Of a DNA stretch of 41,329 bases, positions 9,994 to 41,329 are shown piece by piece (within the stretch, counting starts at the first letter, position 1; each line of letters opens with the position of its first letter). The notes under the pieces were generated by a model. It was not told the DNA's origin, searched no databases, and saw only the letters and a program-made list of their open reading frames with translations. Origin of the DNA: Jimgerdemannia flammicorona (Eukaryota); NCBI GenBank assembly GCA_003990765.1, contig RBNJ01000109.1:1-41329 (forward strand). Direction: 5' to 3'. The translations under genes and the position numbers were made by a program.

Positions 9994-11131
9994 TGTGACA
10001 AGCCAAGACGTACCACCCGAATCATATCTTAACCAGATGACGTGAACAAGATGACGTGAACACTCAGCCTAGTAACTAGCAACCCTTGCTGCAGAAGTTG
10101 TATAAATAGCCAGATATACCAGAAAGGGTCTGTTTATCTGTACAGACTCTGTACACCTGCCATAAGTAGCAGATCTATAGTTAGCCACATAGTAACCAGA
10201 TAGCAACCAACTTGTATAAATTACCCCAGTGGCGAGAGTGAATAAAACCTCAGTCCGAAAGTTGAATACAAACCAAAGCAAAAGTCAATTGTCTGGTACA
10301 CTTAGGAGAAACACCTGCCAAAAGCCACTTGATCCAGGAAGGATTGCAACACTTAGGAGATACGCCTGCCAACGAGCTACTACCAAGAAGTTGTGAGCTT
10401 GGTTCTCTTCTCTTCCACTCCAGTCCACTTTCCGATACAAAGCTGATTTTGCCGCCTAAGTTCAAGGAAGAACTTCGCCGCCTTTGGAATTATTGTTATT
10501 GGTTCGCTTGCCAGATAAGCCTGAAGATTTCCGTCACCTTTTTTGCCACAAGCTAGTCTTTCTGACGCAACTTCGCAGTGGAGCCAGTCTACGACATAAC
10601 CCCATGCAAACAAAGCCAGTCTTTGACGTAACTTGCCAAGAATCCAAGTTATTTGCCGTTTCTAAGTTATCCGCCGCATTTCCAGTTAAGCTGCCATTTT
10701 CAAGAAACCCGCCAAATCCACATTGTCTGTCACTTTTGAGTTATCCGCATTTCCAGAAAACCCACGCCATCCGAGTAGTATTCCCAGTTGAAGCCAAAAC
10801 CGCGACATCTGAGTTATTCGTTATTCCCAGTGAGCCTAGGAAGAATCCGCGCCATACAATTCCCAGTGAGCCAAATCGGGTTATCAGCCAGTTCGCCGCA
10901 TTCCCAGTTGACCTGCATAAGGAACCCGCCGCGCTACACAGAAATCGTCGCGCTACACAGAGATCGTCACGCAGAAATCGCATAAGGAGAACCGCTAAAT
11001 TACCAGACCGTCATGCACAGAGATCGTCACCAAGAACATTTTGTTGCTTTTAACAAAGTAACTGGGGGCTCAAGCCAAACTATATCAATCCCCAACCTTG
11101 TAATTTGCCTCCATTGAGCCGGCACGTTACA
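9994..11131 (+). mobile_element. Solo LTR of the Gypsy family (1138 bp)
   Basis: TGTGAC...GTTACA termini, 4-bp TSD CTAT (9990-9993, 11132-11135). Last ~95 bp nearly identical to LTR ends at 23130, 31907 and 37591; 5' end matches the LTR at 36198. Confidence 0.92.
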
Positions 11132-12829
11132 CTATAATGATAATAATGTTTCCAGAAGTTTCCTTATGAGTGCTATAACCTTATCTTCATTTCTAATATA
11201 ATCTGTAGATGTGCTGAGGAAATTCACTTGATTCACCAGATCATCAACATTATTTGTATAATTGCAGATATACTTTTTGGGTTTTATTCATATATTGAAT
11301 AATTGAGATTTCAAGTGGAATCAATTGGATATAGATGCTTGTACATAATGAGTGTATAGAATCTTCCATATATAAAATACCATCATAACATATATTATAA
11401 GCTTTATTTGCAAGTTCAATAATATGAATACAATCTCATATAATGCTCAGAAATTGTTTGCAGAGTTGTAATCTTGAATTAGTACTTATGACTTCATATA
11501 CTCTACTAAGCTGTATTCTTTAAAGAGATTCATCATATAAAATATCCAAATAGCATAGTCTCTCTCATAGAAGATTAAGATAGACCTCTTGACTATATTT
11601 ATACTAATAACTAAGACTGTGTTTCCTATACTTGTTATTGTGGTAACATCTACAGCAGAGACTGTTATTACTGGAATACTCATGATCAGTATATCTATTT
11701 CTATATTTATATTGCTAGACTGGTCATCAGATATTTCTAGTATATATATAGTATATTTAAAGAGGTATATTTACTATAGCTACTTAGTACTATTGGGGCT
11801 CATGACCTTTGTTATAAAAGAGGGAGATTTTATTAAAGTTATATAGGTCATATATTTCTTGTATTACTGATGAATGATACAAATCTGATAGAATGGCATA
11901 AGGTTATGTACTTTGTCATTTTAATAAATTAGAGTACTTCTTTATATATATAAAGCTTATCCTAATTATTGTAGATGTAGAGGTCTAATTCTCCTTGGTC
12001 ATTAGGTTCAATTTACTTCAGATTATCAGATAGATCAGAATAAATTCCAGTTCAGTAGTTGGGCTTTATACCAACTTATAGAATTTCTATTGAGAGTTGT
12101 AGTTAAGTGAGAAAGTATCTTGAAGCAGAATTGGATTATAAATCACTGCTACTAAGTTTTAAGAGAGTTATTTATTAAAGTACTATTATATAGTTCTAAA
12201 AGAGTTTTCAGAAAGCTCTGAATACCCCAGAAGACAGTTTTCTAAAGCTCAAGATCGCTTTCATATAGAGTTCATTCTTTATACTTATTGATTTCAAGAT
12301 TGGATTAATGTCTTAACTAAAGTCCTTTCTCAGACTTGCTCTGGATATTCAGGATTTTCTCTATTATAAGAAGTTCAAAAAACTAATACCAGCTTAGTTG
12401 AATCAGCATATTGCTGTAGACAATACCTAATTAGGAAATTTCAGAATCTAGTAGGAGTAAGACCTAATATAGTATAAGTTTACTTAAGAGTAGTTTATAA
12501 GTTATTGAATAGATTTATTTGTTATTTATAATATTACTTTAGACTAATACTAGGAATAGTATATGAAGAGATATTTGTGTTAAAAAGTGTTCTTGACTTG
12601 TTTATTTGTATTCTTGTCTCTGTTTCTAAGATCTGGAAGAGTGGATATTTATATTAATAAGAAGCTATTTGGACTATACTAAATATGAGTATAGTACTTA
12701 GTACTTGATGAGTCACAATGCAGTCTTATAGTATAAATGTAAACTGATATATCAAGAGATCAACTGACTGCTGAGTTAGTAGACAGTCATGTAGGATAAG
12801 ACTAATATAACTATACTAATAACTACTAC

Positions 12830-21828: not shown

Positions 21829-23130
21829 TGTGATAAGCAAATAGTATAATATAGCCAGATGATGTGAACTCCTAGCATAGTATAGTTACTTATGCCTACT
21901 ATATTATAATTAGCCAGAATACCAAATCAGGGTTGTTTATTTGTATCCTGAGGACATATCTGACACACTCATGTCCTGCAGACACACTCATATCCTGTGG
22001 ACACACTTATGTACTGTGAATACACCCAAACATTACCAGAAATAGTAAATCTATAATTATCCAGATAGCAACCAGATAGCAACTACAATATATAAAATAT
22101 CTCAAAGACAAATATAAATAAACCTCAGTCTGAATTGAAGTATAAACCAAAGAGGTCTCTAAAGATTGAGCATTGGTCCCCTTTTCCCACTCTGGTCCAC
22201 TTTCTGATATAAAGAATGAGTCTGTTTTTGGTTCACTTGCCAGATAAGTCTGAAGATTTGCTGCCAAAAGTTCAAGTAAAGAACTTCACTGCAATTTGAG
22301 TAGTCTGCTGCTTAAGGAATAAGCTGCTGTTTTCAAGAAATCCACCATCTTGTCACAAAGCCAGTTTGTTGATGCAACTTCACAGTGAACTTATTCACAC
22401 AAATGAAGCCAGTCTCAATATAACTTGTCAAGAACCCACATTCCCAGAGAGCTCTTAAGGAACCTTGCCACAAGTCAGTCTTCTGAAGTAACTTCGCAGT
22501 AGAGCCAGTCCATCCAATATAACTCTGTGTAAATGAAGCCAGTCTTGATATAACTTGCCAAGAATCCACATCTGAGTTATCTGCCATCCCCAGAGAGCTG
22601 CCGATTAAGGAAGAATCTGTGACATCCGAGCTATTCATCCATTCCCAGTGAGCCCAATTCAGAAGAATCCACACCATCCTCTATTCCCAGTAAGCCACTG
22701 ATTCAGGAGAACCTGCACCAAATCAAGAAGTCTGCATAAAGAAGTCTGCCAAGATCGTCGTGCTACACAGAGATCATCATGCCAGAAATCGCATACTTTT
22801 GGAGATCGTCGTACTACACAGAGATCGCCTGTCACCCAAAGAAGAAAAACTGCTAAATTTCTAGACCGTCACATATACTGCACTACACACACACAAATCG
22901 CCGCTACACCCAAGAAACCATCCCATTAAGGAAATTGACACACAAATCGACTGCCACATGAACAGAGGAACTACTGTTGTATCCAGATTGACTATTATAC
23001 TACTAAACACCAAGGACCTCAGGAATCTTAGAATATTTTGTTACTTTTTGACAAAGTAACTGGGGGCTCAAGCCAAACTAAATCAACCCCCAACCTTGTA
23101 ATTTGCCTTCATTGAGCCAGGCACATTACA
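21829..23130 (+). repeat. 5' LTR (1302 bp) with 19-bp tandem CCTGTGGACACACTCATGT in U3
   Basis: Direct repeat of 30619-31907, TG...CA ends. Confidence 0.9.
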
Positions 23131-23132
23131 TT

Positions 23133-23150
23133 TGGGGGCTCAACTGGGAA
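23133..23150 (+). promoter_or_regulatory. Primer-binding site, tRNA-Pro type
   Basis: CA-TT-TGGGGGCTCAACTGGGAA right after the LTR, close to the known tRNA-Pro PBS TGGGGGCTCGTCCGGGAT. Confidence 0.8.
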
Positions 23151-23692
23151 GATTTTAAAATCCATATGACTTTTCAGCTTACAAGAACTCACAGTCAAAC
23201 TGGATACATTTGATACAACACCAATCTCTGCCACTATAGAAGAACCAGTCATCACTAGGATTTGGACAGAAAGAAAAGTAATTACCTCAAGACTTACTAA
23301 CTACTCAGCATCAGAAGGATCCCAACCAGAAGCCAGTATAGCCCGAAATCTTCAACCAGAGTCAACCAGACAATACAGGCAGTCCTGTTGGAAACTTTGA
23401 AGAACTTATATAAGAACTAGAAGATCTTATTTCATAAGCCTGACATTCTACAGCCAGATACCTCAGAGAGGTTCTACCAATCTCACCCATTGAACCTTTA
23501 TCACCAGCCCTTGTAGAATTAGAAATAGCTCCTTCAAGATAACTTAAGCTCATTCTACTTCATCTGAGGTCCATAATACTATCCTCAAGATACCCAAGCC
23601 CCCATCTCCAGTAATAGTTTGGAAAGTAAACCAGAGTCAGAATCTGAATCAGAATCCAGACCAGAACTAGAAACACAAAAAAGTGATAATAA

Positions 23693-25545
23693 AATGACCA
23701 TCCCATTGTCAATCTTTGCAGGATATCCAGAAGAAGATTCTAGAGAATTCCTTAATAGAATCAAGAGAATTTCAGTCCTGTAGAATCTCTCAGATGAAAG
23801 AAAAATTGCTATCTACAAGGCCTACCTCAGAGAACCAGCCAGAGGAATTTTCCACTGAGTAGCAAACGACTCACATTCAGAACTTGTAACAGAAATACAA
23901 GCAGTAGTATCTTATCAGTGAGAATACATAGCCATAGCCCACTGGCTCATCAAGAAGTATGCAGGAAATGAAGATGAACCTTAGAGAATCACCCAGAGCC
24001 TTCTTCACAAGAATTCAGAAGAGAATGTATACAGTCAGGTTCAATGTTATCAACTAAGACATTATAGATCCAATGACCTTTATGAATGGAATTCTCCTGA
24101 ACATTGCTCAGCATATCTGCACCTTAGGTATCAGAAGGTCCAAAGAGCAAGTAGATGTAGTCCAAGAATTCTTTGATATCAGATAAGGAACTACCTGGAG
24201 TGTCCTTGACAAGAAGGATGACAAAGAAGATATTCTGGTCAAAGCACTACAAGGACTCCTTCAAGAACAGAAAAGATCCAAAGAAAAAAGATCAGCCAAA
24301 GAAGAAAAGAAGGACAGAAATAAAATCCAAGACCTCAGTTCCAAGTTGGACTAATTGGTTAGATAGAATCAAAAACTCACCATACATAAAAATCAGAGTT
24401 TTCAATAAGACAACAGAGGATACCTACTACAAAGAAATCAAGGTTATCTACCCAGAGATAACAAGAGTTATAAGTAAGAGGAAAGAAGATACTCTGTATA
24501 GGACAAAGCCCAAGTTCAATGCTTCCACTGTAGACAATTCAGATACTATGCTACAGAATATAACAACAAAAGAAGTAACCAAAGGGAGTCAGAACTTCCA
24601 AACCAAAGGAATGGCATCAAATACAAGAAGACTGAGGCCCATCCTGTCAAATATTTTGAAGAAGAAAGTAATAGTGAAGACTACAGTGACCTGGACTTGT
24701 ATCCAGCCAAAGTCATTACCCAAAAAACAGTTTACTCAGCAGAGAAGAGGAAGAGACCTGAAGGAAGACTATGCAGAAATACCAGCAGAAGAATCTAAGA
24801 GAAAGATGAAGAACATAAAGAGGAGCAAGTAGAAATATCTCCTAGATCTCTCTCACCTTTTGTTTCTGAAACAAATGAACTACCTCTAGAGAATGAAGAA
24901 ATGGAGCAAAAAGAATGGGAACCTGCTGCCTCAAAGCCCAAGAAGAAGTATACCCCAAAGACTATATTCAGAGACATCTACATTGAAGTCTGGCAAAATA
25001 TTCAAGAAGCCAAGATGGAAGTTCCTCTTCTGCAGTTCCTGTAACTGACACCAGCTAGAGTCTGAAATAAATTGCTGGAGACCACCAGGTCTAGTGCTGG
25101 CCAAGTCTCTATCCTACAGCAAGAACCAGCTTCCACCCCTATTCAGGCTGTAGAGAGATATATCAGCACCTATTTATATAGAGATATTAGAGGACAAAAG
25201 GTGAAAATCCTCATAGATATAGAAGCAGCTATCTGTGTTATTGCTAAATAATTTCTAGATACCCTCCAATGGCCCATTGATGGACCATCCAACCTCAGCA
25301 TCATAGTAGCAGATGGAGCCTGAACTCAACCTCTTGGAGAAGTATGAAACATCACCATCTCTCTTGGATACATTCAGTTCTCCATTCTGAAAGCTGTTGT
25401 CACTAAAACTATCATCTATAATATGATCCTTGACACCAACTAGATAAAGGAAATAAATGCAATTATTGATATTGATCAATAAGTACTTAAGTTTGACTAC
25501 CAAGATAAGAAGTATAGAGTTAAAGTGACCAGCTATAAGCAATCA
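23693..25545 (+). pseudogene. Gypsy gag + aspartic protease (copy 1)
   Basis: IFAGYPEED.REFL, decayed knuckle CFHCRQFRYYATEY (about 24520-24560), ILIDIEAA (DTGA in copy 2) at about 25207. Confidence 0.85.
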
Positions 25546-26820
25546 AAGAAGAAGAAGAAGATCACCACCTAGGAAGAATATGCCAGCAGCGAAGAGTTTA
25601 CTATAGAAAAGAAAGAAGAATCCAAAGATGGAAATGATTCCAGACTCTATCCCCAAATCAACTTGGTGGATAACAGACCAGAAGACAATGTGTGGGCTAG
25701 AAATACTATCCCCATCACCATTGGAGCCATTGCAGGAGAGATCAAAGGATGCCCTATCTGTCTCAAAAGACACAAGTGCCCCAAGCACTCCTCCAAGATC
25801 ATTGGGACAAGGAATTCGCCTGGTATAGCCTGCCCTGAGTGCAGAAGAAAGAAGAAGAAATATAGACATGTTTCAGAGACACCTGCAACTGAAGCTGCAG
25901 AAGTACAAGCAATTTGGGGTCAAGAATCATCTAAAGAAAAAGAAACCCCTAAATAGAGATTTCTGAACAAGAAGTATCTGAAGAAGAGGTCCCCAAACTC
26001 ATTCCCTGGAATGACCTTTACTAGACACCACCCAAAGATAATGATCCCTGGAATGTTGAAGAAGGACCCAGCATAATCCCCATTATTCCAAAGTAAGAAA
26101 CTTATTAGAATAGAGCCTTTTGGCTAGGAAGATGTCCACATCAAATAGTCTTTCACCTCCCTGAGACTACTGCTATCAGTACCACCTGTTGGACTAATAA
26201 GAAAGATAGAGACTACAAATATTAGAACCCCTGACCATAGTTATACAGTCAACCACCTTCCAGGAAGTCACCACTAAGTTGTAAAGTCTATTTAGAGGAT
26301 AAGGTCTCTTTATCCAAACAGAAGTATATCTCTTGGCCACCCTTCCCCCAACTTATGACCAAGATGGATACTGATTTCCAAGATAACAAGAGATCAATAA
26401 CTGGGAACAGCATTTCTGAACAATGGGATATTATAACTCTAGAAGACACACAGACTATCAAGACTGCAGACACCTGAAGATTCATCTCAGCCAGAATGCT
26501 GCAATTCATATCTTGAAGAGAGGAGATAACAGAGGTCAGACCTGAAAAGTCAGATGAAGAAACCAGCATGAAGGACTCTCAAGATCTATTATTTGAGAGA
26601 AAATATCCTAGCTCTCATCAGATATATAACCTGCTAAGGATAGATAGAGAATGCCACCAACTTTATGATAGCCCTAGACCCTACAGGAAAATGAGGAATC
26701 AATTATCTCTGAGATCCCTCTACTGGGGCCAAATGGCCACACCTCAACCTCAGAGCTTGGAGACTCTCTGCTAGTAGAGCTTCAGCCCAAGAATAACCTG
26801 AACTTAGTAAAGATGTTACC

Positions 26821-27225
26821 CAGTATACTCTGCTACATTCCAAAGACAAACTCTCAACCAAAGCTCATCAAGAAGATATATGGTATGACTTCTACAGCCT
26901 GGAGGACAAACTCATTAAGTCTGGAAGAATACTGATGTTCAGAAACAGACTAGCTATACAGTCACTCCAAGGAACTTATATCCAACTGACCTCAAGGTCT
27001 GGGCTTGCCAGATAAGAAATAACCGTAGAAGGAGAAACCATAGACCTCGGATATATAGGCAAAATCAAGGTCATTCTGCACAACAGTAGTACAGAATGGT
27101 ACCAAATTATTAGAGGACAGAAGATTGCTCAAGCAGTCTTCATGAAGGTCAAGACCCCACAATTATAAGAAGTCTCTGAACTGACTGAAGAAACAAGGCA
27201 AGCTGAAGAATTTGGAAGCTCAGAT
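26821..27225 (+). pseudogene. dUTPase domain in Gypsy pol
   Basis: All five trimeric dUTPase motifs in one frame: AHQEDIWYDF, SRSGLA, ETIDLGYIG, GQKIAQ, RQAEEFGSSD. One internal TAA. Confidence 0.9.
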
Positions 27226-27779
27226 AAGAAAGAAGTACATCTCCTTCAGGTCAATCACCTTAAGAGGAATGTTCTTTATCAAGTATTCTGCCAACCAGTC
27301 TATCTGTACAAGAATCTCATCCTAGAACCTAGAGAGCAAACCACCTATGAAATCTTTACACCACCTGACACCTGAAACCTCTTCTTTGAACTGAATAAAG
27401 ATATCCCAAATCTGGATGTAGAAGGATACACATTTCCTGATAAGATGAATCCAGTGCACTCTTGAGTAACCAACCAAATTTGAGAGACCATCATCTTGCT
27501 AAAGAGAACTATCATAGGACATCTGATGCTTTTTCTCAATTGAACTCAGAGAGAAGTCTATGAACTAAAGTTATTGAGAAACAGCAAAAGGTCTCAGAAG
27601 AAAGAAAAGACCCCTCTATGACCCAGAAGACAGTGAAGCCTTCTACTAATATTGGAGAAGAATTGACACCCCAGCAATAGCAACAACTAGTAGAACTCCT
27701 CAACAAATATCAAGATATCCTTACTATAGACTATGGCAACTTTCCATACAATCCATCATATCACTACAGTATAAATATG

Positions 27780-30090
27780 GAAAATGTAACAGCCAAACAG
27801 AAATCCTATAGAATACCCCTTTACCTAAAGACATTCAAAAAGGAATACATTTAGAACTCTTCGACAATGGAGTCATCTGACCCTCAACCAGCCCTTGGGC
27901 CAGCCCTATACTTATTATACCAAAGAAAGGAGAATGGAGACTCTGTGTAGACTACAGAAAATACAATTCAGTTACCAAAAAGGATTCTTATCCTTTGCCA
28001 AGAATCAACAACATTTTGGACCAGTTACAAGATACAGATATTTCAGCAATATAGACCTTTTCACAGAATTCCATGGGATCCCCATGGACTCAAAAGACAT
28101 TCAGAAGACAGCCTTTCTTACATTAGGAAAACTGTTTGAATACCTCTAAATACTTTGGACTTTGCAATATACCTCCCATCTTCCAGAGAATGATGAATTC
28201 AGTCTATGCCTACTTAATCCACTACTGCCTGATTGTATATATAGATGATTCCAATATCTATTCAGCAAATTTCAAGGAATACCTACACCACTTAGAAGAA
28301 TTCTTCAAGCTCAACTATAAGTATCACCTGAGACTCAATGCCAAGAAATACTACTTCAGGAAACAGAAACTTGAATTCCTTAGATTTATAGTTTTGAAAG
28401 AAGAAATCCATACAGATCTAAAGAAAACTGAGAAGATCAACAATTGGCCAGTACTTAAGACTCCAAAGGAAATACTATCATTTCTGATACTAGTATTCTA
28501 CTATAGATGGTTTATTAAGGAATTTGCCTCCAATCCAAATTCTTCTTAAGAAAGGAGTACCTTACAAATGGATGGAATCACAAGAGAAAGCCTTCAAAGA
28601 ACTCAAGCACTGCATGACTACAGCATCAATTCTTGTCCACCTCAATCTACAGAAGTCATTCATCTTGTATACAGATGTCTCCAAAGATGGCCTGGGAGTT
28701 TTAGCCTAAGAGGAATCTGATCAACAATACCATATAATAGTTTATACAAGCTGAGCTATCAATAAGCAGCAGATGAACTATGGTAGCACCAAATTGGAAT
28801 GTCTTACAATCATATGGACAGTCACCCTATTTAAGCATTATCTTAACAGAAAAGGTTTACCCTGATAACAGATCATATAGCCCTCAAATGGCTGTTCAAC
28901 TGCCAGAATCCTAGCCTGCTGAATTCTTATCCTTCAGAATTATAAAATCACCATCATCTACAAAGCAGAGAAAGCTTACAACAATGTTGATGTACTTTCT
29001 TGTCAACCTCAATTAATCAGAAGAAGAGTATACTGAGGAACTACACCCTAAAGAAAGCTTCTCAGACCATCAAGGCACAAGAAGATCTCATCTGAAAAGA
29101 ACATTAGAAAGCCCACCAAGGACAGGCAAATATAGAAAAAAAACTACAAACAATATACCAACATTGGCCCAATCTCAGAATATAAATTCAGGACATACTC
29201 AAGAAATGTGACACCTGCCAGAAGTACCAAGGAAGGAAGAACCACCAAGCACTACTACAATCAATTGTACTATCAGACAACATCTTTCAGAGATAGGGAG
29301 TAAATGTAATTGAACCCCTACCAGTTATATCAAGAAGAAATAAATATATTCTTATATTTGTAGAATATCTGACCAAGTGGCCTGAGACTTTTCCAATGGA
29401 AATTGCAGATGTCCTAACCATTGTAGGCCTTCTCCATAGACTCACACTCAGATATAGACCTCTAGAAGAACTTATTTCTGACTGAGATATAGAATTTATC
29501 AACAACATAATCACAAGTTAAACTCAAATCAACAAGATCTACCTCAAACAGACTACATCATATTACTCTCAGACCAATGGCATGACAGAAAGGATGAAAT
29601 AGACCATCAAGAAAGAACTTGCTTAAGTCAATTCTACCAACTAGAACCTCTGTTTATCTGAGATCCTATGGGAAATTCAGAACACCCCTGCTGCCTCTAC
29701 CAAATAAAAGCCCTTTGAGATGATATTTACCAAGAAAACCAGAACTACTGACTATGAGAACTTCAGAGACCTCCTCAAGAAGGCAGAACAGCTATATAAT
29801 CAATCCCAAGTTCAGATTATCAAAGCCCAAGAAAGACAAAAGAAGTACTATGATCAGAAGCAAAAGGATCAGAAGATCAAGATTGGAGATCAAGTACTAG
29901 TTTGGAGAAGCATGATTGAAATAAACTTTACCACCAAACTGGAGCCCAAATGATAAGGACTCTATCTTGTACACAATATCAGAGGAACCAGTATCTATTT
30001 AAGAAACATGAATGGACAAACTCTGAGGACACTTGTATATATCAATTATCTCAAAATATACCTCTCCCCACATCAAGAATCAGAGAATTG
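27780..30090 (+). pseudogene. Gypsy reverse transcriptase, RNase H and integrase
   Basis: [23 protein letters not shown] (about 28235), LYTDVSKDGLG, NYGSTKLEC, KYILIFVEYLTKWPE, QTNGMTER, GDQVLV...KLEPK..GLY (GPY/F). Frameshifts and stops present. Confidence 0.92.
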
Positions 30091-30509
30091 ACAACTGCCT
30101 ACAGACCCTTATCCTTAGTTTCTTCCAAGCTCTGCCAGTTCTCCTACTACAGTTCTGAGAACCCAATGGAATATATCTCCAAAGAATCCAGATTTATCAA
30201 GAAAACCTCACTCTGGCCAAGAGATTACTCCAGGTCCACCAGCTGCAGACCTACTATATAATTGGGGAATAGTTGCAGAATCTTCCTCTCTCAGACCTGA
30301 TCTATGTCCACAATACTACTGATCTGAATAGAAGAATTATCACTACTGCAGAAAGACCATACACAATCTACAAACAAAACCCTTCAGCCCTGATCTAGAC
30401 CTAGTTCTCTCTGAATAATCTCCAAAGAATGACACAACCTATCTATCTCAGTATTATCTACCAAGTTGAGACCCTATTCTCTGAGAGAGAAGAGGAGCCC
30501 CTAGAATAG
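30039..30509 (+). pseudogene. Putative extra ORF between integrase and 3' LTR
   Basis: About 155 codons in one frame, different from integrase, whose internal stops are one TGA and three TAG, all explicable by C-to-T: ...LQRIQIYQENLTLAKRLLQVHQLQTYYIIGE...RIITTAERPYTIYKQNPSAL...SLNNLQRMTQ. Confidence 0.55.
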
Positions 30510-30618: not shown

Positions 30619-31907
30619 TGTGATGAGCAAATAGTATAATATAGCCAGATGATATGAACTCCTAGTATAGTATAGTTACTTATGTCTATTATATTATAAT
30701 TAGCCAGAATACTGAATCAGGGTTATTTAGCTATATTCTAAGAATATATCTGTGTCTAGCAAATATACTCATATTCTGTAGACATACTTATGTCTTGCAG
30801 ATATACTAATATCCTATAGATATACTCAAATATTTCCAGAGATGATAAATCTATAATTTTCCAGATAGCAACCAGATAGCAACCACAATGTATAAAATAC
30901 CCCAGAGACAAGAGTGAATAAACCTTAGTCCAAATTGAAGTACAAACCAAAGAAGCCTCTAAAGATTGAGCATTGGCCCCCTTTTCCCACTCTGGTCCAC
31001 TTTCCAATATAAAGAATAAGTCTGTTTTTGGTTTGCTTACAAGATAGGCCTAAAGATTTGCTGTCAAAAGTTTAAGTGAAGAACTTTGCCACTATTTGAG
31101 TAGTTTGCTACTTAAGGAATAAGCTGCTATTTTTAAAAAATCCACCATCTTGTCACAAAGCCAATCTATTGATCCAACTTTGCAGTGAACTTGTTCATGC
31201 AAACAAAGCCAGTCTTGATGTAACTTTACCAAGAACCTACATTCTCAGAGAGCTCTTAAGAAGCCTTGCCACAAGCCAGTCTTCTGATATAACTTTGCAG
31301 TAGAGCCAGTCTATCTAATATAACTCTATACAAATGAAGTCAGTCTTGACATAATTTGCCTAGAATCCACATCTGAGTTATCTGCCATCCCCAGGGAGCT
31401 GCCAATTCAGGAAGAATCTGTGATATCTGAGCTATTTATCTATTCCTAGTGAGCCTGATTCAGAAGAATCTGCACCATCTTCTATTCCTAGTAAGCTACT
31501 GATTCAGAAGAATCTACATCAAATCAAGAAGTCTATATAAAGAAGTCTGCCAAGATTATCACAATATAAAGATCATTACACCAAAAATCACATACTTTTA
31601 GAGATCATTATGCTACACAGAGATCACCTATCACCCAAAGAAGAAAAATGCATACTGTGCTACATATATATAAATTACTACTATACTCAAGAAACCATCC
31701 CAAAAAGGAAATCAACACACAAATCAACTGCTCCATGAATAGAAGAACTACTATTGTATTCAGATTAACTATTATACTACTAAATACCAAGGATCTCAAG
31801 AATCTTAAAATATTTTGTTGCTTTTTGACAAAGTAACTAAGAGCTCAAGCCAAACTACATCAATCCCCAACCTTGTAATTTGCCTCCATTGAGCTGGGCA
31901 TATTACA
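30619..31907 (+). repeat. 3' LTR (1289 bp)
   Basis: Direct repeat of 21829-23130. Preceded by hairpin AGTCTG-AGG-CAGACT and a weak purine tract. Confidence 0.9.
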
Positions 31908-32514: not shown

Positions 32515-33494
32515 AAATTCTCATTAATAATAGCTTATCATTATTACTAAATTCTCATTAATAGAGGCTTACTGACAAAGAACCATTGATAGACTCAATG
32601 GTAGAGAAAGATCAATAGAGGTTTGATGACAGGGAACTATTATTACTGCTGAATTCTCATTAATAGAGACTTGATGGCAGAGAATGCTCAATAGAGGCTC
32701 AATGGTAGAGAACTATTGATGGAGGCTTAATGGTAGAGAACTATTATTGCTATTAAATTCTCATTAATAGAGGCTCAATGGCAGAGAATGGTTGATGGAG
32801 ACTTAATGGTAGAAAACTATTGTCACTACTGAATTCTCATTGATAGAGGCTTGATAGCAGAGAACTTGAATTCTCATTGATAGAAGCTCAGTAGTAGAGA
32901 ACTATTATTGCTGCTGAATTCTCATTGATGGAGGCTCAAAAGTTCACATTGATGGAGACTCAAAAGTTCACATTGATGGAGGCTCAAAAGTTTACATTGA
33001 TGGAGACTCAAAAGTTCACATTGATGGAGGCTCAAAAGTTCATATTGATGGAGGCTCAAAAGTTTATATTGATGGAGGTTCAAAAGTTCACATTGATGGA
33101 GACTCAAAAGTTCATATTGATGGAGGCTTAAAAGTTTACATTAATGGAAACTCAAAAGTTCACATTGATGGAGGCTCAAAAGTTCACATTAATGGAGACT
33201 CAAAAGTTCACATTGATGGAGACTCAAAAGTTCACATTGATGAAGACTCAAAAGTTCACATTGATGGAGATTCAATGGTAGAGAATAGTCAATGGAGACT
33301 TGATGGTAGAGTATTGTCATTACTGCTAAATTCTCATTGATGGAGGTTTGATGGCAGAGAATGGTCAATAGAGACTTAATGATAGAGAACAGTCAATAGT
33401 AGAGACCTATTATCACTACTGAATTCTCATTGATAGAGAGAGAATAGTTAATGAAGGCTTAATGATAGAGAACAGTTGATAGAGACTCAATGGC
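32515..33494. repeat. Complex satellite (core ATTGATRGAGRCTYAATGGYAGAGAA) with a homogeneous 24-bp sub-array at 32923-33272 (about 14.5 x CATTGATGGAGRCTCAAAAGTTCA); resumes at 35112-35252
   Basis: Units read directly; translation repeats LME(A/T)QKF(T/I) every 8 codons. Confidence 0.9.
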
Positions 33495-35075
33495 CAGACA
33501 GGGGCAACACAGGCAACATGGGCAACATGGGCAATAAGATGGGCAAGATGGCAAGATGGCAAGATGGGCAACATGGGCAAGATGAGCAGATGGCAAGATA
33601 GGTGATATGGGCAAAATGAGCAAAACAGGCAACACAGGCAACACAAGCAACATAGGCAGGCAACATGGGCAACACAGGCAACATGAGTGGGCAACATGGG
33701 CAATATAGGCAACACAGGCAATACAGGCAACACAGGCAACACAAGCAACATAGGCAGGCAACATGGGCAACACAGGCAACATGAGTGGGCAACATGGGCA
33801 ATATAGGCAACACGGGCAATACAGGCAACACAGGCAACGCAAGCAACATAGGCAGGCAACATGGGCAACACAGGCAACATGAGTGGGCAATATGGGCAAT
33901 ATAGGCAACACGGGCAATACAGGCAACACAGGCAGGCAAGATGGGCAAGATAGGCAAGACAGGTAAGATGGGCAAGATGGGCAAGATGGCAAGATGACAA
34001 GATGGGCAACATGGGTAAGACAGGCAAGACAGGCAAGACAGGCAAGATAGGCAAGATAGGCAAGATGGGCAAGATGGGCAAGATGGACAAGATGGCAAGA
34101 TGGCAAGATGGTAAGATGGGCAACATGGGCAAGATGGGCAGACAGCAAGATAGGCAACATGGGCAAGATGGGCAAAATGGGCAAAACAGGCAAAATGGGC
34201 AATATGGGCAATATGGGCAACATGGGCAGGCAATATGGACAATATAGGCAACATGGGTGGGCAACATAGGCAATACAGGCAACATAGGCAACACAGGCAA
34301 TACAGGTGGGCAAGATGGGCAAGATGGGCAAGACAGGCAAGATGGCAATATGGGTGACATGGGCAAGATGGGCAGACAGCAAGATAGGCGATATAGGCAA
34401 GATAGGCAAAATAGACAAAATGGGCAATACAGGCAATATAGGCAACATGGGCAACATGGGCAATATGGGTAATATGGGCAATATGGGTGGGCAAGATGGG
34501 TAAGACAGACAAGATGGGCAAGATGGGCAAGATGGGCAAGATGGCAAGATGGCAATATGGGCAATACAGGTAACACAGGCAGGCAAGATAGGCAAGACAG
34601 ATGACATAGGCAAAATGGGCAAAATGGGCAAAATGGGCAATACAGGCAATATGGGCAACATGGATAACATGGGCAACATGGGACATGGGCAACATGGGTG
34701 GGCAAGATGGATAAGATGGGCAAGATGGGCAAGACAGACAAGATGGCAAGATGGCAATATGGGCAATACAGGCAACATAGGCAGACAAGATAGGCAAGAT
34801 GGTTAGATAGGCAAGACTGGAGGCACTAATAGGGGTAGGTCAGGTGCACTAGATGCCAAGTACTTGAGGTGGTTGGGGCTCACAACCCATACCTACTGGG
34901 TGGGGCAGGCTGGGTAAGAGGATCTAGTTACTTGGGCAGTAAGATCATAACTTATACTCTAAAGATGCAAGGCTGGGTGAGGATGAAGGTGGATTGAGAT
35001 TGGGGTGGAATGGGGCTACTGATGTTATATGAGGATATGTGGCATATTATGGATAGTTAATAAATGAGGCTACAG

Positions 35076-36197: not shown

Positions 36198-39100
36198 TGT
36201 AATAGACTAAAAACATACCACCTGAATTATAACTTAGTCAGATGATGTGAACAATTAGCATACTTACTCAGCATAATGTGACTTCCAGTATATCATAGTT
36301 ACTCATGCCCACCATACTTATAATTAGCTGAGACATCAGATCAGGATTGTTTATATATGTCCTAAGGACACACTCATGTCCGGCGGACACACTTATGTCC
36401 TGTGGACACACTCATGTCCTGCAGACACACTTATGTCCTGTGGACACACCTGTACCCAGAGGACATACCCAAACATTACCGAAGATAGCAAATCTATAGT
36501 TAGCCACATAGCAACCAGATGGCAACCAACTTATATATATTACCCCAGAATTGAGAGTGAATAAAACCTCAGTCCGAATTGAAGTACAAACCAAAGAAGT
36601 CTCTAAAGATTGAGCAATTGGTCCCCTTATTCCCACTCCGGTCCACTTTCTGATACAAAGATTGATTGGTTCACTTGCCAGATAAGCCTGAAGATTTGCC
36701 ACCTAAGTTTAAGGAGAACTTTGCCGCCTTTTGAGTAATCTGCCACTTAAGGAATAAGCTGCTATTTCCAAGTTATCTACATTAGAAAGCTGCCTTGCCC
36801 AAGCCAGTTTCTGATGCAACTTCGCAGTGATCCATTCGCGCAAATGAAGCCAGTCTTAGATGCAACTTTGCCAAGAGACCCTTTCCAAGCTGCCATCCCA
36901 TTTCCCAGTTAGAGCCACTGATTCAGGAAGAATCTGCACCATCATATTCTCAGTTAAAGCCGCCGATTCAGGAAGAACCTGCGCCATCTGGGTTAATTTC
37001 CAGTTAAGCCACCGTTCTCAAGAAACCGCTGATTCAGAAAGGATCCGCGCTGTCCGAGTTATTTCCCAGAAGCCCACCGATTCAGGAAGGATCTGCATCA
37101 TCTGCCATTTCTGAGTTATCCACATTCCCAGTGAGCCTAGGAAGAATCCATGCCATATGATTCCCAGTGAGCCAAATTGAGTTACCTGCCAAATTATCAG
37201 GACGTCACTCAAGAAGGAAACTGCCACGCTACACAAGAGATTGTCATGCTACACAGAGATCGTCATGCAGAAATCACATAAGGAGAACTGCTAAATTGCC
37301 AGACTGTCACCCAGAAATCACATACTTTTGGAAATTACCTTGCTACACAAAATTGTACCATTCCCAGTTGACCCAAGAAGGAGAGATACAAGTCGCCACT
37401 ACACTCAGAGAATAGTCCCAATAAGGAAACCACTTGCAGATATCCAGCTTTGACTATTATACCACTAAATACCAAGGACCTCAGGAATCTTAGAACATTT
37501 TGTTGCTTTTTGACAAAGTAACTGGGGGCTCAAGCCAAACTACATCAACTCCCAATCTTGTAATTTGTCTTTATTGAGCTGGCACATTACATTTGGGGGC
37601 TCAACTGGGAAGATTTTAAAATCAACGTGACTTTTCAGCTCACAAGAACCTACAGTCAAACTGGATATGTTTGATACAACACTAATCTCTACCACTACAG
37701 GAGAACTGCTCATCACTAGCATTTGGACAGGAAGAGTAGTAATCACCTCAAGACTTGCCAACTACTCAGCATCAGAAGGATCCCAACCAGAAGCAGGAGG
37801 CAGTATAGCCCGAAATCCTCAACCAGATCAATCAGACAATACAGGCAGCCCTGCCAGAGTTTTTAGAGAACTTGCACAAGAACTAGAAGACCTTATTACC
37901 CAGACCCAACACTTTACAGCCAGACACCCCACACAAGCCCCACCAATCTCACCAATAGAACCCCTACCACAACCCTGTGCAGAACCAGAAGTAGCTCCTA
38001 CAAGAATACCTAGGCCTATTCTACCCCACCCAAGGACCAGAACACCATCTTCAAGATACCCAAGCACCCCAGTCTCTAGTGACAGTTCAGAAAGTGAATC
38101 AGAATCAGAATCTGAACCTGAACCAGAATCAGAAGAAAGTGACGATGAAATGGCCACCTCATTACCAATCTTTGCAGGATACCCAGAGGAGGACCCCAGA
38201 GAATTCCTTGATGGAATTGAAGGAATTGCAGCCTTGAGAAACCTCTCAGATGAAAGAAAAATCGCCATCTACAAAGCCCAGCTTAGAGAAGTAGCTAGAG
38301 GAATTTTCCACCAAACAGCAAACAATCCAGATTCGGAACTGGCAAGACAGATACAAGCAGCATTCTCTGATGAGCTAGAATATCAGGCCATGGTCCATTG
38401 GCTCATTGAAAAATATGCAGGAAATGAAACCCACCACAAGGCTCAGGAATCTATCATGGGAATGAAGATGAATCTTAGAGAATCACCCAGAGCCTTCTTC
38501 ACAAGAATCCAGAAGAGATTGCATTCTGTCCGGTTTAATGCCACCAACCAAGACATCATAGGTCCAATGACCTTCATGAATGGAATTCCTCTGAATATTG
38601 CCCAGCATGTCTGCACTCTAGGCATCAGAAGGTCTGAAGAGCAAGTAGATGCAGCCCAAGGATTCTTTGATGTCAGGCAAGGAACTACCTGGAGTGATCA
38701 TGATAAGAAGGAAGATAAAGAAGATATCCTGGTTAAAGCCCTGCAAGGACTCCTCCAAGGACAAGAAAGATCTGAAGAACGAAGGCCAGCCAAGGAAGGA
38801 AAGAAGGATAGAAGTGAAATCCAAGATGTCAGCTCCAAGTTAGACCAATTGGTCAGACAGATTGAAAAACTCACCACATGCGAAAATTGGGACTATCAAA
38901 ACAGCAGAGGGTACCCACCACAGAGGAGCCAAGGTTACCCACCAAAAGATAACAGGAATTACCAGCAAGAAGAAAGAAGATACCCTGTCCAAGACAGAGC
39001 CCAAGTCCAATGCTTCCACTGTGGACAATTCGGACACTATGCTACTGAGTGTGACAACAAAAGAAGTGACCAGAGAGACTCAGAACTACCAAACCGAAGG

Positions 39101-41310
39101 AATGATACCCAGTACAAGAAGACTGAAGCCCATCCTGTTGAAGATTTCGAGGAAACAAGCAACAGTGAAGACTACAATGACCTAGACTTGTACCCTACCA
39201 AGGTTACTATGTGAAAGACAGTCTACCCAGCAGAAAAAAGGAAGAGACCTGTGGGAAGACCATCCAGGAACATCAGCAGGAGAATCATTCAAGAAGAAGA
39301 TGAAGAATATGAGGAGGAACAAGTTGAAACACCTCCCCGAACCCCCTCACCTTTTGTGCCTGAGACAAATGAATTGCCACCAGAAGATGAAGAAATGGCA
39401 CAAGAAGAACGGGAACCTGCTGCTCCAAGGCCTAAGAAAAAGTATACTCCAAAGACCATGCCTAGAGACATTTACAATGAAGCCTGGCAGAAGATCCAAG
39501 AAGCCAAGATGGAAGTTCCTCTTCTGCAGTTCTTGCAATTGACACCAGCTGGAGTCTGAAACAAATTGCTGAGCACCACCAGGTCTAGCACTGACCGAGT
39601 ACCAATCCCACAACAAGAACCAGCCCCTATTCCTGTCCAAGCAGCTGAAAGACATGTCAGCACCTACTTACATGGAGACATTGGAGGACAAAAAGCAAAA
39701 ATCCTCATAGACACTGGAGCAGCTATCTGTGTCATTGCCAAATGATTCCTGGACACCCTCCAATGGCCCATTGATGGACCATCCAACCTTAGCATCATAG
39801 TAGCAGATGGAGCCTGAACTCAACCTCTTGGAGAAGTACAAAACATCACCATCTCCCTTGGACATATTCAGTTCTCCATCTCTAAAGCTGTTGTCACTGA
39901 AGCTGTCACCTATGATATGATTCTTGGCACCAACTAGATGAAGGAAATGAATGCAGTTGTTGATATCGGCCAACAAGTACTCAAGTTTGACTACCGAGAC
40001 AAGAAGTATAGAGTTAAGGTGACCAGCTATGAGCAATCAAAGAAAAAGAAGAAGGTCACTATTCAGGAAGAGTATGCCAGTAGTGAAGAATCTACTACAG
40101 AAGAAGAAGAAGAATCCGAAGATGGAAATGATCCCAGACTCAATCCTCGAATTAACCTGGTGGATGACAGACCAGAAGACAATATGTGGGCTAAGAACAC
40201 TATCCCCATCACCATTGGAGCCATTGCAGGAGAAGCCAAAGGATGCCCCACATGCCTCAAGAGACACAAGTGTCCTGAGCACTCCTCCAAGATCATGGGA
40301 ACAAGGAAATTGCCTGGTGCAGCCTGCCCAGAATGCAGAAGAAAGAAGAAGAAATGCAGACATATTCCAGAAACACCTGCAACTGAAGCTACAGAGGTAC
40401 AAGCAATTTGGGGTCAAGAATCATCTGAGGAAAAAGAAACTTCTGACCAAGAAGTTCCTGAACAAGAAGCACCTGATGAAGAAGAAGTCTCTGAACTCAT
40501 CCCCTGGGATGACCCTTGCTGGACACCACCTGAAGACAATGACCCCTGGAATATAGAGGAAGGACCCAGTACTATCACCATTATCCCCAAGAAAGAAACC
40601 TACCAAGAGAAAGCTTTCTGGCTAGGAAGATGTCCACATCAAATGGTCTTCCACTCTCCCAGAGACTATTGCTATCAGTGTCATCTGTTGGATCAACAAG
40701 ACAGAGACGCCAGAGACCAGAACCCCCAACTATTCTTGCATAGTCTACCACCTTTCAAGAAGTCACCACAAGGTTACAAAGTCGATTTAGAGAACAAGGC
40801 TTCTTTACCCAAACAGAAATATATCCCTTATCTACCCTTCCCCCAACCTATGATCAGGATGGGTACCGATTTCCCAGACAACAAGAGATAAATAGCCAGG
40901 AACATCATTTCCGAGCAATGGGATATTGCAACCATGGAAGACACCCTGATTGCTGAGACTGCAGACATCAGAAGATTCATCTCAGTTATGATGTTGCAGT
41001 GCACACTCTGAAGAAAGGAGATATATAACTAAAGCCAGATCCAAAAAAGTCAGATTCGAAAAAGCCAGACCAAGAAGCCCAGAAAAAGAATTCTCAAGAT
41101 CTATGATTTGGGAGAAGACATCCTAGCTCTCATCAGACATGTAATCTGCCAAGGATGGGCAGAAGATGCCACCAACTTCATGGAAGCCCTTGACCCCACA
41201 GGAAGGAGGGGAATCAATTACCTCCGAGACCCCTCTACTGGAGCCAGATGGCCACACCTCAACCTCAGAGCTTGGAGGCTCTCTGCTAGTGGAGCTTCAG
41301 CCTCAGGAAA
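36198..41310 (+). mobile_element. Second Gypsy copy (5' LTR 36198-37591, PBS 37594-37611, gag, protease, Cys-rich insert), cut by poly-T at the window end
   Basis: LTR TGTAAT...TTACA; internal region collinear with 23131-26790 and less decayed. Confidence 0.93.
37667..41310 (+). pseudogene. Gypsy gag-pol, copy 2
   Basis: ORFs at 37667, 39251 and 39938 share one frame and are separated by TGA/TAG. Knuckle CFHCGQFGHYATEC, protease ILIDTGAAICVI (about 39700). Probable true gag start at ATG 38150. Confidence 0.9.
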
Positions 41311-41329
41311 TTTTTTTTTTTTTTTTTTT

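Follow-up and report, generated by a model that had tools for sequence, protein, structure and literature searches.

A dUTPase encoded between protease and reverse transcriptase has been described for fungal Ty3/Gypsy retrotransposons, the main text of PMC2864245 reporting it for PosPlaTy3-5 of Postia placenta and noting dUTPase-carrying elements also in Phanerochaete and Tuber. In the betaretrovirus Mason-Pfizer monkey virus the enzyme is fused to the nucleocapsid protein (NC), and the account given in PMC1802613 presents this NC-dUTPase as joining nucleic-acid-binding zinc knuckles to dUTPase. Here we analyse a stretch of 41,329 nt from Jimgerdemannia flammicorona (contig RBNJ01000109.1, read on the forward strand), hereafter the window, in which one Ty3/Gypsy family is represented twice. 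The pol of this family contains, after the protease and ahead of the dUTPase, an insert of ∼420 codons rich in Cys and His, and the data below show that this insert genuinely belongs to the Gag-Pol polyprotein and is under selection. The window family resembles PosPlaTy3-5 in being an element with long terminal repeats (LTRs) that encodes gag, protease, dUTPase and reverse transcriptase in one polyprotein. The main text of PMC2864245, its supplementary element tables aside, describes the dUTPase only; it does not mention a Cys/His-rich region of this size, and the term 'zinc finger' occurs 0 times. Thus, the position of the dUTPase is already published, while for the Cys/His module beside it no description was found in the literature, those supplementary tables again aside.

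The two copies (22980-26787 and 37441-41302) are collinear and 80.2% identical over 3,884 columns; their MAFFT alignment comprises 3,926 columns, of which 3,117 are identical, 112 contain gaps and the others are transitions (567) or transversions (130). Copy 1 is complete: its two LTRs (21829-23130 and 30619-31907) share 82.7% identity over an alignment of 1,313 columns. Copy 2 has an LTR ending near 37591, and its homology to copy 1 extends to 41302, at the very start of the dUTPase, beyond which poly-T runs to the window end (41302-41329); the dUTPase of copy 2 is therefore outside view. Both copies are dead, containing many stops and frameshifts, and decay is heavier in copy 1. The polyprotein order is gag with a CCHC knuckle (39011-39052; Pfam zf-CCHC, E 7.5e-5), protease, insert, dUTPase and reverse transcriptase (RVT_1 on copy 1 28127-28546, E 2.9e-9). 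The flanking LTRs, with the gag CCHC knuckle, protease and reverse transcriptase in this order, are those of a Ty3/Gypsy element, and the dUTPase between protease and reverse transcriptase is the feature of the dUTPase-bearing fungal members. The Gypsy order further places integrase behind RNase H; in the heavily decayed region examined for integrase, the stop-free pieces of copy 1 at 29708-29950 and 29920-30258 matched no Pfam family at E≤0.01.

The protease of copy 2, a decayed retropepsin (39560-40029; all features are on the + strand), has its D-T-G at 39713-39721 and its last strands ending near 40027. Its stop-free piece (39560-39745) gave weak Pfam aspartyl-protease matches (E 0.006-0.007), and the region is collinear with the Pfam-called protease (residues 392-502) of P0004, a 1,179-residue polyprotein fragment discussed below. 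In the AlphaFold2 model of P0001, a translation of copy 2, three strands are predicted at residues 6-27 with a predicted local distance difference test score (pLDDT) of 73-89. The gag stop of copy 2, a TGA at 39212, reads CAA in copy 1, and gag and pol of the family thus probably form one frame.

The insert occupies 25537-26785 in copy 1 and 40031-41300 in copy 2. The preliminary description of this DNA had reported a long Cys/His insert in both copies, and the motifs that it quoted are all found in copy 2 and, in decayed form, in copy 1. The insert is one continuous ancestral frame, broken by indels and stops that are private to each copy. Frameshifting deletions of 1, 1 and 19 bases in copy 1 (at 25954, 26156 and 26528, respectively), together with two indels in copy 2, namely 4 bases fewer at 40697 and extra bases at about 41021-41059, explain all changes of frame. 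The deficit in copy 2 (40697-40698, a gap of 4 relative to copy 1) moves codon starts from 2 to 1 modulo 3, and the indel zone at 41021-41059, opposite copy 1 gaps of 19 and 1, brings the frame back to 2 modulo 3. Contigs related to the element, drawn from four public runs (X1, X2, X3 and X7) of two studies, three labelled soil metagenome and one by organism, show that neither state of copy 2 is the common one. The 4 extra bases at 40697 account for depths of 50.1 of 52.8 in X1, 6.07 of 6.07 in X2, 8.41 of 8.41 in X3 and 3.9 of 6.1 in X7. Similarly, 4 bases are omitted at 41021 at depths of 11.4 of 36 in X1 and 11.2 of 11.2 in X3, and X2 contigs omit 1 and 3 bases, at 41024 and 41029, respectively; the omission leaves a single frame throughout in several related contigs.

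It had also been proposed that the program-made track of open reading frames (ORFs) follows the wrong frame after about 40710. Three lines of evidence show that this is correct. For 40701-40888 the ratio of non-synonymous to synonymous substitution rates (dN/dS) is 0.26 in the frame with codon starts equal to 1 modulo 3, compared with 0.72 in the long open frame and 0.90 in the third; of the frames after 40697 only the former aligns to P0004 (12 of 30 residues identical, E 1e-5); and contigs of all four runs have the 4 additional bases at 40697. The alternative frame is open for 66 codons in copy 2 (40691-40888) and for 78 codons over the same stretch of copy 1 (26241-26474). Given its dN/dS of 0.72, against 0.26 for the real frame, this shared openness is probably due to chance in A-rich sequence. 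As ORF tracks take the wrong frame in these decayed copies, annotation pipelines will overlook the module.

Selection on the insert was assessed by the method of Nei and Gojobori (NG86), with two controls chosen in view of the prevalence of transitions: off-frame readings as a first control and, as a second, 500 permutations in which the counts of each substitution type were kept and positions were random. Over 40031-40888 dN/dS is 0.27 in the coding frame and 0.58-0.67 in the other two, an excess of synonymous differences in line with those noted in the preliminary description. For the whole insert (409 codons) the ratio of the proportions of non-synonymous and synonymous differences (pN/pS) is 0.34, whereas the permuted alignments had a median of 0.62 and a minimum of 0.42, so that 0 of 500 were as low. 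This level of constraint is comparable to that of gag (506 codons, pN/pS 0.40) and protease (271 codons, 0.27), for both of which 0 of 500 permutations were as low. The purifying selection that had been suggested is hence upheld. The non-synonymous difference (pN 0.13) is likely to reflect post-insertion decay in large part, because the LTRs of copy 1 itself differ by 17%; if so, we infer that constraint in the active lineage is stronger than the raw ratio. Among the best-supported 40 of 332 variant sites in the related contigs, synonymous changes number 22 in the inferred frame and 13 and 8 in the shifted frames, and at these 40 sites the proposed ligand codons of the basic cluster and finger 1 (see below) are unchanged.

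These data bear on the view that the insert has no function, being neutral filler or an artefact of decayed sequence with motifs arising by chance. Such an explanation would draw on the many stops and frameshifts of two dead copies and on the dominance of transitions (567 of 697 substitutions), a bias sufficient to bring the expected pN/pS down to about 0.6. The observed ratio of 0.34, however, lies under all 500 permutations and the off-frame controls behave as neutral, homologues at 28-38% identity keep the motifs in the same order, and one segment is folded by AlphaFold2 at pLDDT 95-97. We therefore regard an absence of function as extremely improbable.

Constraint is not evenly distributed. 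It is strongest in finger 1 (27 codons, pN/pS 0.13, 7 of 500 permutations as low), and is also evident in the basic cluster (40 codons, 0.21, 1 of 500), acidic tract 2 (81 codons, 0.32, 0 of 500) and the spacer (75 codons, 0.39, 3 of 500). Acidic tract 1 (70 codons, 0.30, 27 of 500), finger 2 (31 codons, 0.38, 155 of 500) and the C-terminal block (70 codons, 0.56, 49 of 500) are individually unconvincing in a single pair of copies, dN/dS of the C-terminal block being 0.41 compared with 0.87-1.08 off-frame.

When 1.84 billion cluster representatives were searched exhaustively with HMMER, nine proteins reached E≤0.001. The most informative is P0004, named in its source only as 'dUTP pyrophosphatase', which aligns collinearly with the window family, starting in gag and extending past the dUTPase (977 columns, 27.8% identity, E 1e-84). 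Pfam recognizes its protease and, at residues 897-1021, its dUTPase (E 1.3e-32), with nothing between them. In that interval P0004 keeps a W-D-D-P motif, finger 1, D-G-Y-R-W, a second finger and the C-terminal block, and the basic cluster is missing from it, leaving a gap in the alignment. P0004 and the window family thus share a conserved core, which consists of a Trp-acidic motif, the CHCC finger 1, D-G-Y-R, a further finger of the form C-x-[HC]...C-x2-C and the block that runs up to the dUTPase; the basic cluster is lineage-specific. In both, this core lies directly upstream of the dUTPase. Together with the many related contigs of the four public runs, P0004 establishes that the insert occurs beyond the two copies in the window.

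No Pfam or PDB sequence family fits the insert at threshold, in keeping with its preliminary designation as unannotated. Pfam scans of P0001 and of P0002, which covers the C-terminal block, gave 0 families at E≤1, and Pfam scans of the alignments of relatives at E≤10 gave only sub-threshold rows. A word-based search with P0001 among longer proteins returned nothing, and a protein search with P0004 residues 520-896 returned only the query itself. When P0001 was compared with metagenome contigs, 176 pattern stretches matched and 0 were confirmed; a finger-1 DNA pattern and P0004 found nothing among viral contigs, and the ESM Atlas yielded no usable match for P0001 or for P0004 residues 620-890. 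The sole match of the degenerate finger-1 DNA pattern, L001, was dismissed as chance, being a high-GC contig without a related ORF.

The preliminary description had treated the insert as an accessory module of pol. The module is real, selected and without a curated family, but it is not one domain; rather, three or four small modules are strung along disordered acidic linkers, and it is with the dUTPase that the insert is closely associated. In copy 2 it opens with acidic tract 1 (40031-40240; net charge −8 over 70 residues), in which a run of lysines precedes a stretch rich in Glu, Ser and Thr; pLDDT is mostly below 50, and P0003 is 84% identical over its start. Acidic tract 2 (40364-40591) has a net charge of −21 over 76 residues and is modelled at pLDDT 40-61 in two AlphaFold2 models. 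It contains the conserved Trp motifs I-W-G-Q, I-P-W-D-D-P and D-P-W-N, of which W-D-D-P is also kept in P0004, P0005 and P0008. In copy 1 (insert at 25537-26785) the same order is recognizable in decayed form, with the basic cluster at 25750-25869, finger 1 at 26094-26204, finger 2 at 26432-26476 and the C-terminal block at 26575-26757; stops are numerous and several of the motif Cys codons now encode Tyr.

Finger 1 (40592-40699 in copy 2) comprises a helix, a C-x-H knuckle and a C-x2-C that starts a long helix. The motif C-x-H...C-x2-C-H spans 40631-40684, its ligand codons lie at 40631, 40637, 40670 and 40679 (pattern C-x-H-x10-C-x2-C), and the segment has a net charge of zero. The extended motif A-F-x2-G-x-C-x-H-x3-F-x-S-x4-C-x2-C is present in five of the seven rows of an alignment (A1), those of copy 2, P0004, P0006, P0009 and P0011. 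An AlphaFold2 model of P0001, built from an alignment of 13 rows, averages pLDDT 59 and falls below 50 at 140 of its 317 residues, while finger 1 (residues 215-265) scores 95-97; in a second model, built from 7 rows, it scores 84-96. The predicted shape is a helix, a tight loop bearing C-x-H, around which the second model places a bridge pair, and a C-x2-C that opens a helix of 15 residues (102-116 in the second model). In knuckle-plus-helix ('treble-clef-like') fingers a tight loop supplies two of the ligands and the first helical turn the other two. At the level of predicted secondary structure finger 1 fits this description. From the ligand patterns and the predicted knuckle-plus-helix geometry we infer that the fingers would bind zinc.

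Searches with both finger 1 models gave best Foldseek E-values of 0.84 and 9.1 and best VIA-align Z-scores of 2.7 and 2.3, a null result that, for so small a domain, decides neither novelty nor its absence. At the sequence level finger 1 has no PDB match, a profile search of the PDB with alignment A1 reaching only a tag-like stretch of 3tix at a chance level (E 0.66), and no Pfam family scored below E 0.05 on the members of the alignment. In structure prediction combined with Foldseek, proposed at the outset as a check, finger 1 is predicted to fold with very high confidence, and no convincing structural neighbour was found. The region defines at least one small domain family, whose fold is predicted confidently and for which relatives have not been described.

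One alternative is that the insert is mostly a disordered spacer or pro-region with a structural or regulatory part in processing of the polyprotein, for example through spacing, cleavage sites or control of protease or dUTPase trimer assembly, the Cys/His knots being mere stabilizers. The 140 poorly modelled residues of P0001 are in line with this, as are the acidic tracts, which make up about one third of the insert and are constrained (pN/pS 0.30 and 0.32) as functional linkers would be. It is nevertheless unlikely, as frame maintenance alone does not explain the low dN/dS, the most constrained segment is finger 1, whose ligands are invariant at about 28-38% family divergence, and 420 codons are a costly spacer for a retroelement. 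Another alternative is an adaptor for a host protein, in which nucleic acid would not be the target and a cellular factor (of transport, chromatin or repair) would be recruited by the neutral finger 1 together with the Trp-acidic motifs. The conservation of W-D-D-P and D-x-W in the acidic tract of the window copy, P0004, P0005 and P0008, and the absence of net charge on finger 1, would suit such a role. Short Trp-acidic motifs are, however, common in disordered regions, the likeness to known Trp-acidic binding motifs is tentative and no partner is known; we consider a host-directed adaptor very unlikely.

Between the two acidic tracts (−8 and −21) lies the basic cluster (40244-40363), with seven proposed ligands, a net charge of +11 over 41 residues and the motif C-x2-C-x5-C-x2-H-x14-C-x2-C-x6-C at 40244-40357. 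AlphaFold2 models it with low confidence (pLDDT 45-54). Its only relatives are two hypothetical proteins of J. flammicorona (Endogonales, Mucoromycota), P0007 (RUP13587.1; 39% identity to copy 2, BLASTP E 9e-13) and P0010 (RUS25563.1; 34%, E 1e-11), the matches spanning 54-90 residues. A four-row alignment that includes both shows no variation at the C, C, C, H, C, C positions or at G, R, P and K positions. P0010 carries two Myb domains, and besides the cluster P0007 and P0010 have nothing in common with each other or with the element; a protein search with P0010 residues 150-215 returned only itself. The cluster is thus a small mobile domain common to the element and to cellular-looking proteins, pointing to domain exchange between retrotransposon and host regulatory proteins, although the direction of transfer is not decidable from four sequences.

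In the fungal Zn(2)Cys(6) family (PF00172) the cysteines are spaced C-x2-C-x6-C-x5-12-C-x2-C-x6-8-C. The cluster resembles this family in its six Cys residues, arranged as two C-x2-C-x(5-6)-C halves, and in its richness in Lys and Arg, and its second half aligns to profile positions 2-18, the first half of PF00172. It differs in its spacing (C-x2-C-x5-C-x17-C-x2-C-x6-C) and in the invariant His that follows the third Cys. PF00172 matched three of the four alignment rows, over half the profile only and with a best E of 0.002, and copy 2 missed the gathering score (15.1 bits, cut-off 21; E 0.025). A PDB profile search with the cluster returned only LAC9 (1cld) at E 7.8. A resemblance to copper-fist domains was considered and dropped, since copper-fist is not among the eight Pfam families listed at E≤10.

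Targeting or anti-silencing was the function originally suggested for the insert. Here, the basic cluster, perhaps with the fingers, would recognize chromosomal DNA or chromatin and either direct integration or influence transcription or silencing. Evidence for this can be seen in the charge of +11, in the presence of the cluster in a protein with two Myb DNA-binding domains, and in the weak likeness of its second half to the first half of Zn(2)Cys(6). The latter is, however, below the Pfam cut-off and the Cys spacing does not fit. Furthermore, the cluster lies between protease and dUTPase, far from integrase, so that processing would separate it from the enzyme responsible for target choice; P0004 lacks it but retains the rest of the insert; and no result bears on silencing. 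A targeting module is, therefore, distinctly unlikely.

Downstream of finger 1 the spacer (40744-40926, codon starts equal to 1 modulo 3) contains a conserved D-G-Y-R-[FW] motif and aligns to P0004 residues 736-765 (E 1e-5); the TAG at 40741 of copy 2 is CAG in most related contigs. Finger 2 (40927-40971) has its motif proper, C-x-H-x5-C-x2-C, at 40927-40962, in another frame than finger 1. It contains an in-frame TGA at 40954-40956, at the place written '(R)' in the preliminary description, where copy 1 has CAA. At the equivalent position P0004 has C-x-C-x11-C-x2-C. A test of paralogy between the two fingers gave no support, as a finger-1 hidden Markov model scores finger-2 segments like shuffled sequence (166, 210 and 99 of 300 shuffles as high). 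The in-frame TGAs of copy 2 at 39212-39214 and 40954-40956 face CAA codons at 24721-24723 and 26459-26461 of copy 1, the pattern expected if a single ancestral CpG-containing codon had decayed on opposite strands, and one consistent with the strong transition bias noted above.

The C-terminal block (41090-41272, ILKIYDLG to NLRAW) precedes the dUTPase and matches P0004 residues 795-866 (E 2e-8, 21 of 72 identical). P0002 also matches P0004 residues 299-353, just before the protease, weakly (E 0.003); a duplication of the pre-protease segment was considered and discarded, as the window's own pre-protease segment gave no alignment. The block had been described as running in frame into the dUTPase of copy 1, and this holds. 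The dUTPase (26797-27165) is in the same frame, interrupted by stops, with a PF00692 match at 27016-27165 (E 6.8e-7), and is collinear with the dUTPase of P0004 (897-1021).

The location of the conserved core against the dUTPase suggests, by analogy with the retroviral fusion, that the module is an adaptor that keeps dUTPase in the reverse-transcription complex, a proposal that we favour tentatively and rate somewhat below an even chance. The protease would free the insert region together with, or adjoining, the dUTPase, and the module would then retain the enzyme within the nucleoprotein particle in which reverse transcription occurs. The basic cluster may bind nucleic acid and the charge-neutral finger 1 may make protein contacts, such that dUTP would be removed at the place of cDNA synthesis.

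The NC-dUTPase, as presented in PMC1802613, is the nearest precedent in function. There too a retroelement dUTPase is immediately preceded, within one chain, by a region of zinc motifs, and the logic proposed for it likewise couples nucleic-acid binding to the removal of dUTP at reverse transcription. In the retroviral protein, however, the partner is the Gag nucleocapsid with its C-x2-C-x4-H-x4-C knuckles, whereas the window family keeps a knuckle of its own in gag. A six-frame search for that pattern finds it only in gag (39011-39052) and never in the insert. The module described here is encoded in pol as a region of its own; its ligand patterns differ, and its acidic linkers are long. It is adjacent to the dUTPase in one frame; a single mature protein of the NC-dUTPase kind would be hypothetical.

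Several observations weigh against an adaptor role in reverse transcription. Finger 1 has no net charge and the module is strongly acidic overall, which disfavours nucleic-acid binding. The only clearly basic part, the cluster, is modelled at low confidence and is missing from P0004, and it thus cannot be the conserved function. After cleavage the module may not travel with the dUTPase, and the co-occurrence of the two rests on the window family and P0004, as the four short metagenomic proteins that carry finger 1 do not bear on it. Finger 2 and the C-terminal block are individually non-significant for selection in the single pair of copies, and the fold searches gave no structural neighbour that would hint at function.

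A conserved and selected region beside the enzyme nevertheless provides a handle on why Gypsy elements carry dUTPase and how they use it. A broader scenario, which we consider doubtful though worth stating, is that a Gypsy clade of early-diverging fungi evolved its own tethered dUTPase independently of retroviruses. The CHCC finger, as a fold not described before, and its partner motifs would then be obligate companions of the dUTPase, and one lineage would have exchanged a novel type of basic zinc-cluster nucleic-acid-binding domain with Myb-type regulators of the host.

Other features of the window were also noted. A second conserved but unannotated stretch of ∼200 codons lies between dUTPase and reverse transcriptase in copy 1 (27169-27850). 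It is collinear with the C terminus of P0004 (residues 1022-1175) within a tblastn match of 345 columns at 31.6% identity, and neither sequence matches a Pfam family. LTR-like fragments of the family occur at 10160-11138 (11033-11131 is 91% identical to 23030-23130, and 10167-10278 is 89% identical to 36486-36596) and probably represent a solo or broken LTR. At 32919-33275 a 24-base repeat is present in 14.9 copies. A minisatellite at 33498-34814 comprises ∼143 copies of a 9-base unit or 74 of an 18-base unit; on the minus strand it leaves every frame open over 447-469 codons, and such openness does not indicate genes.

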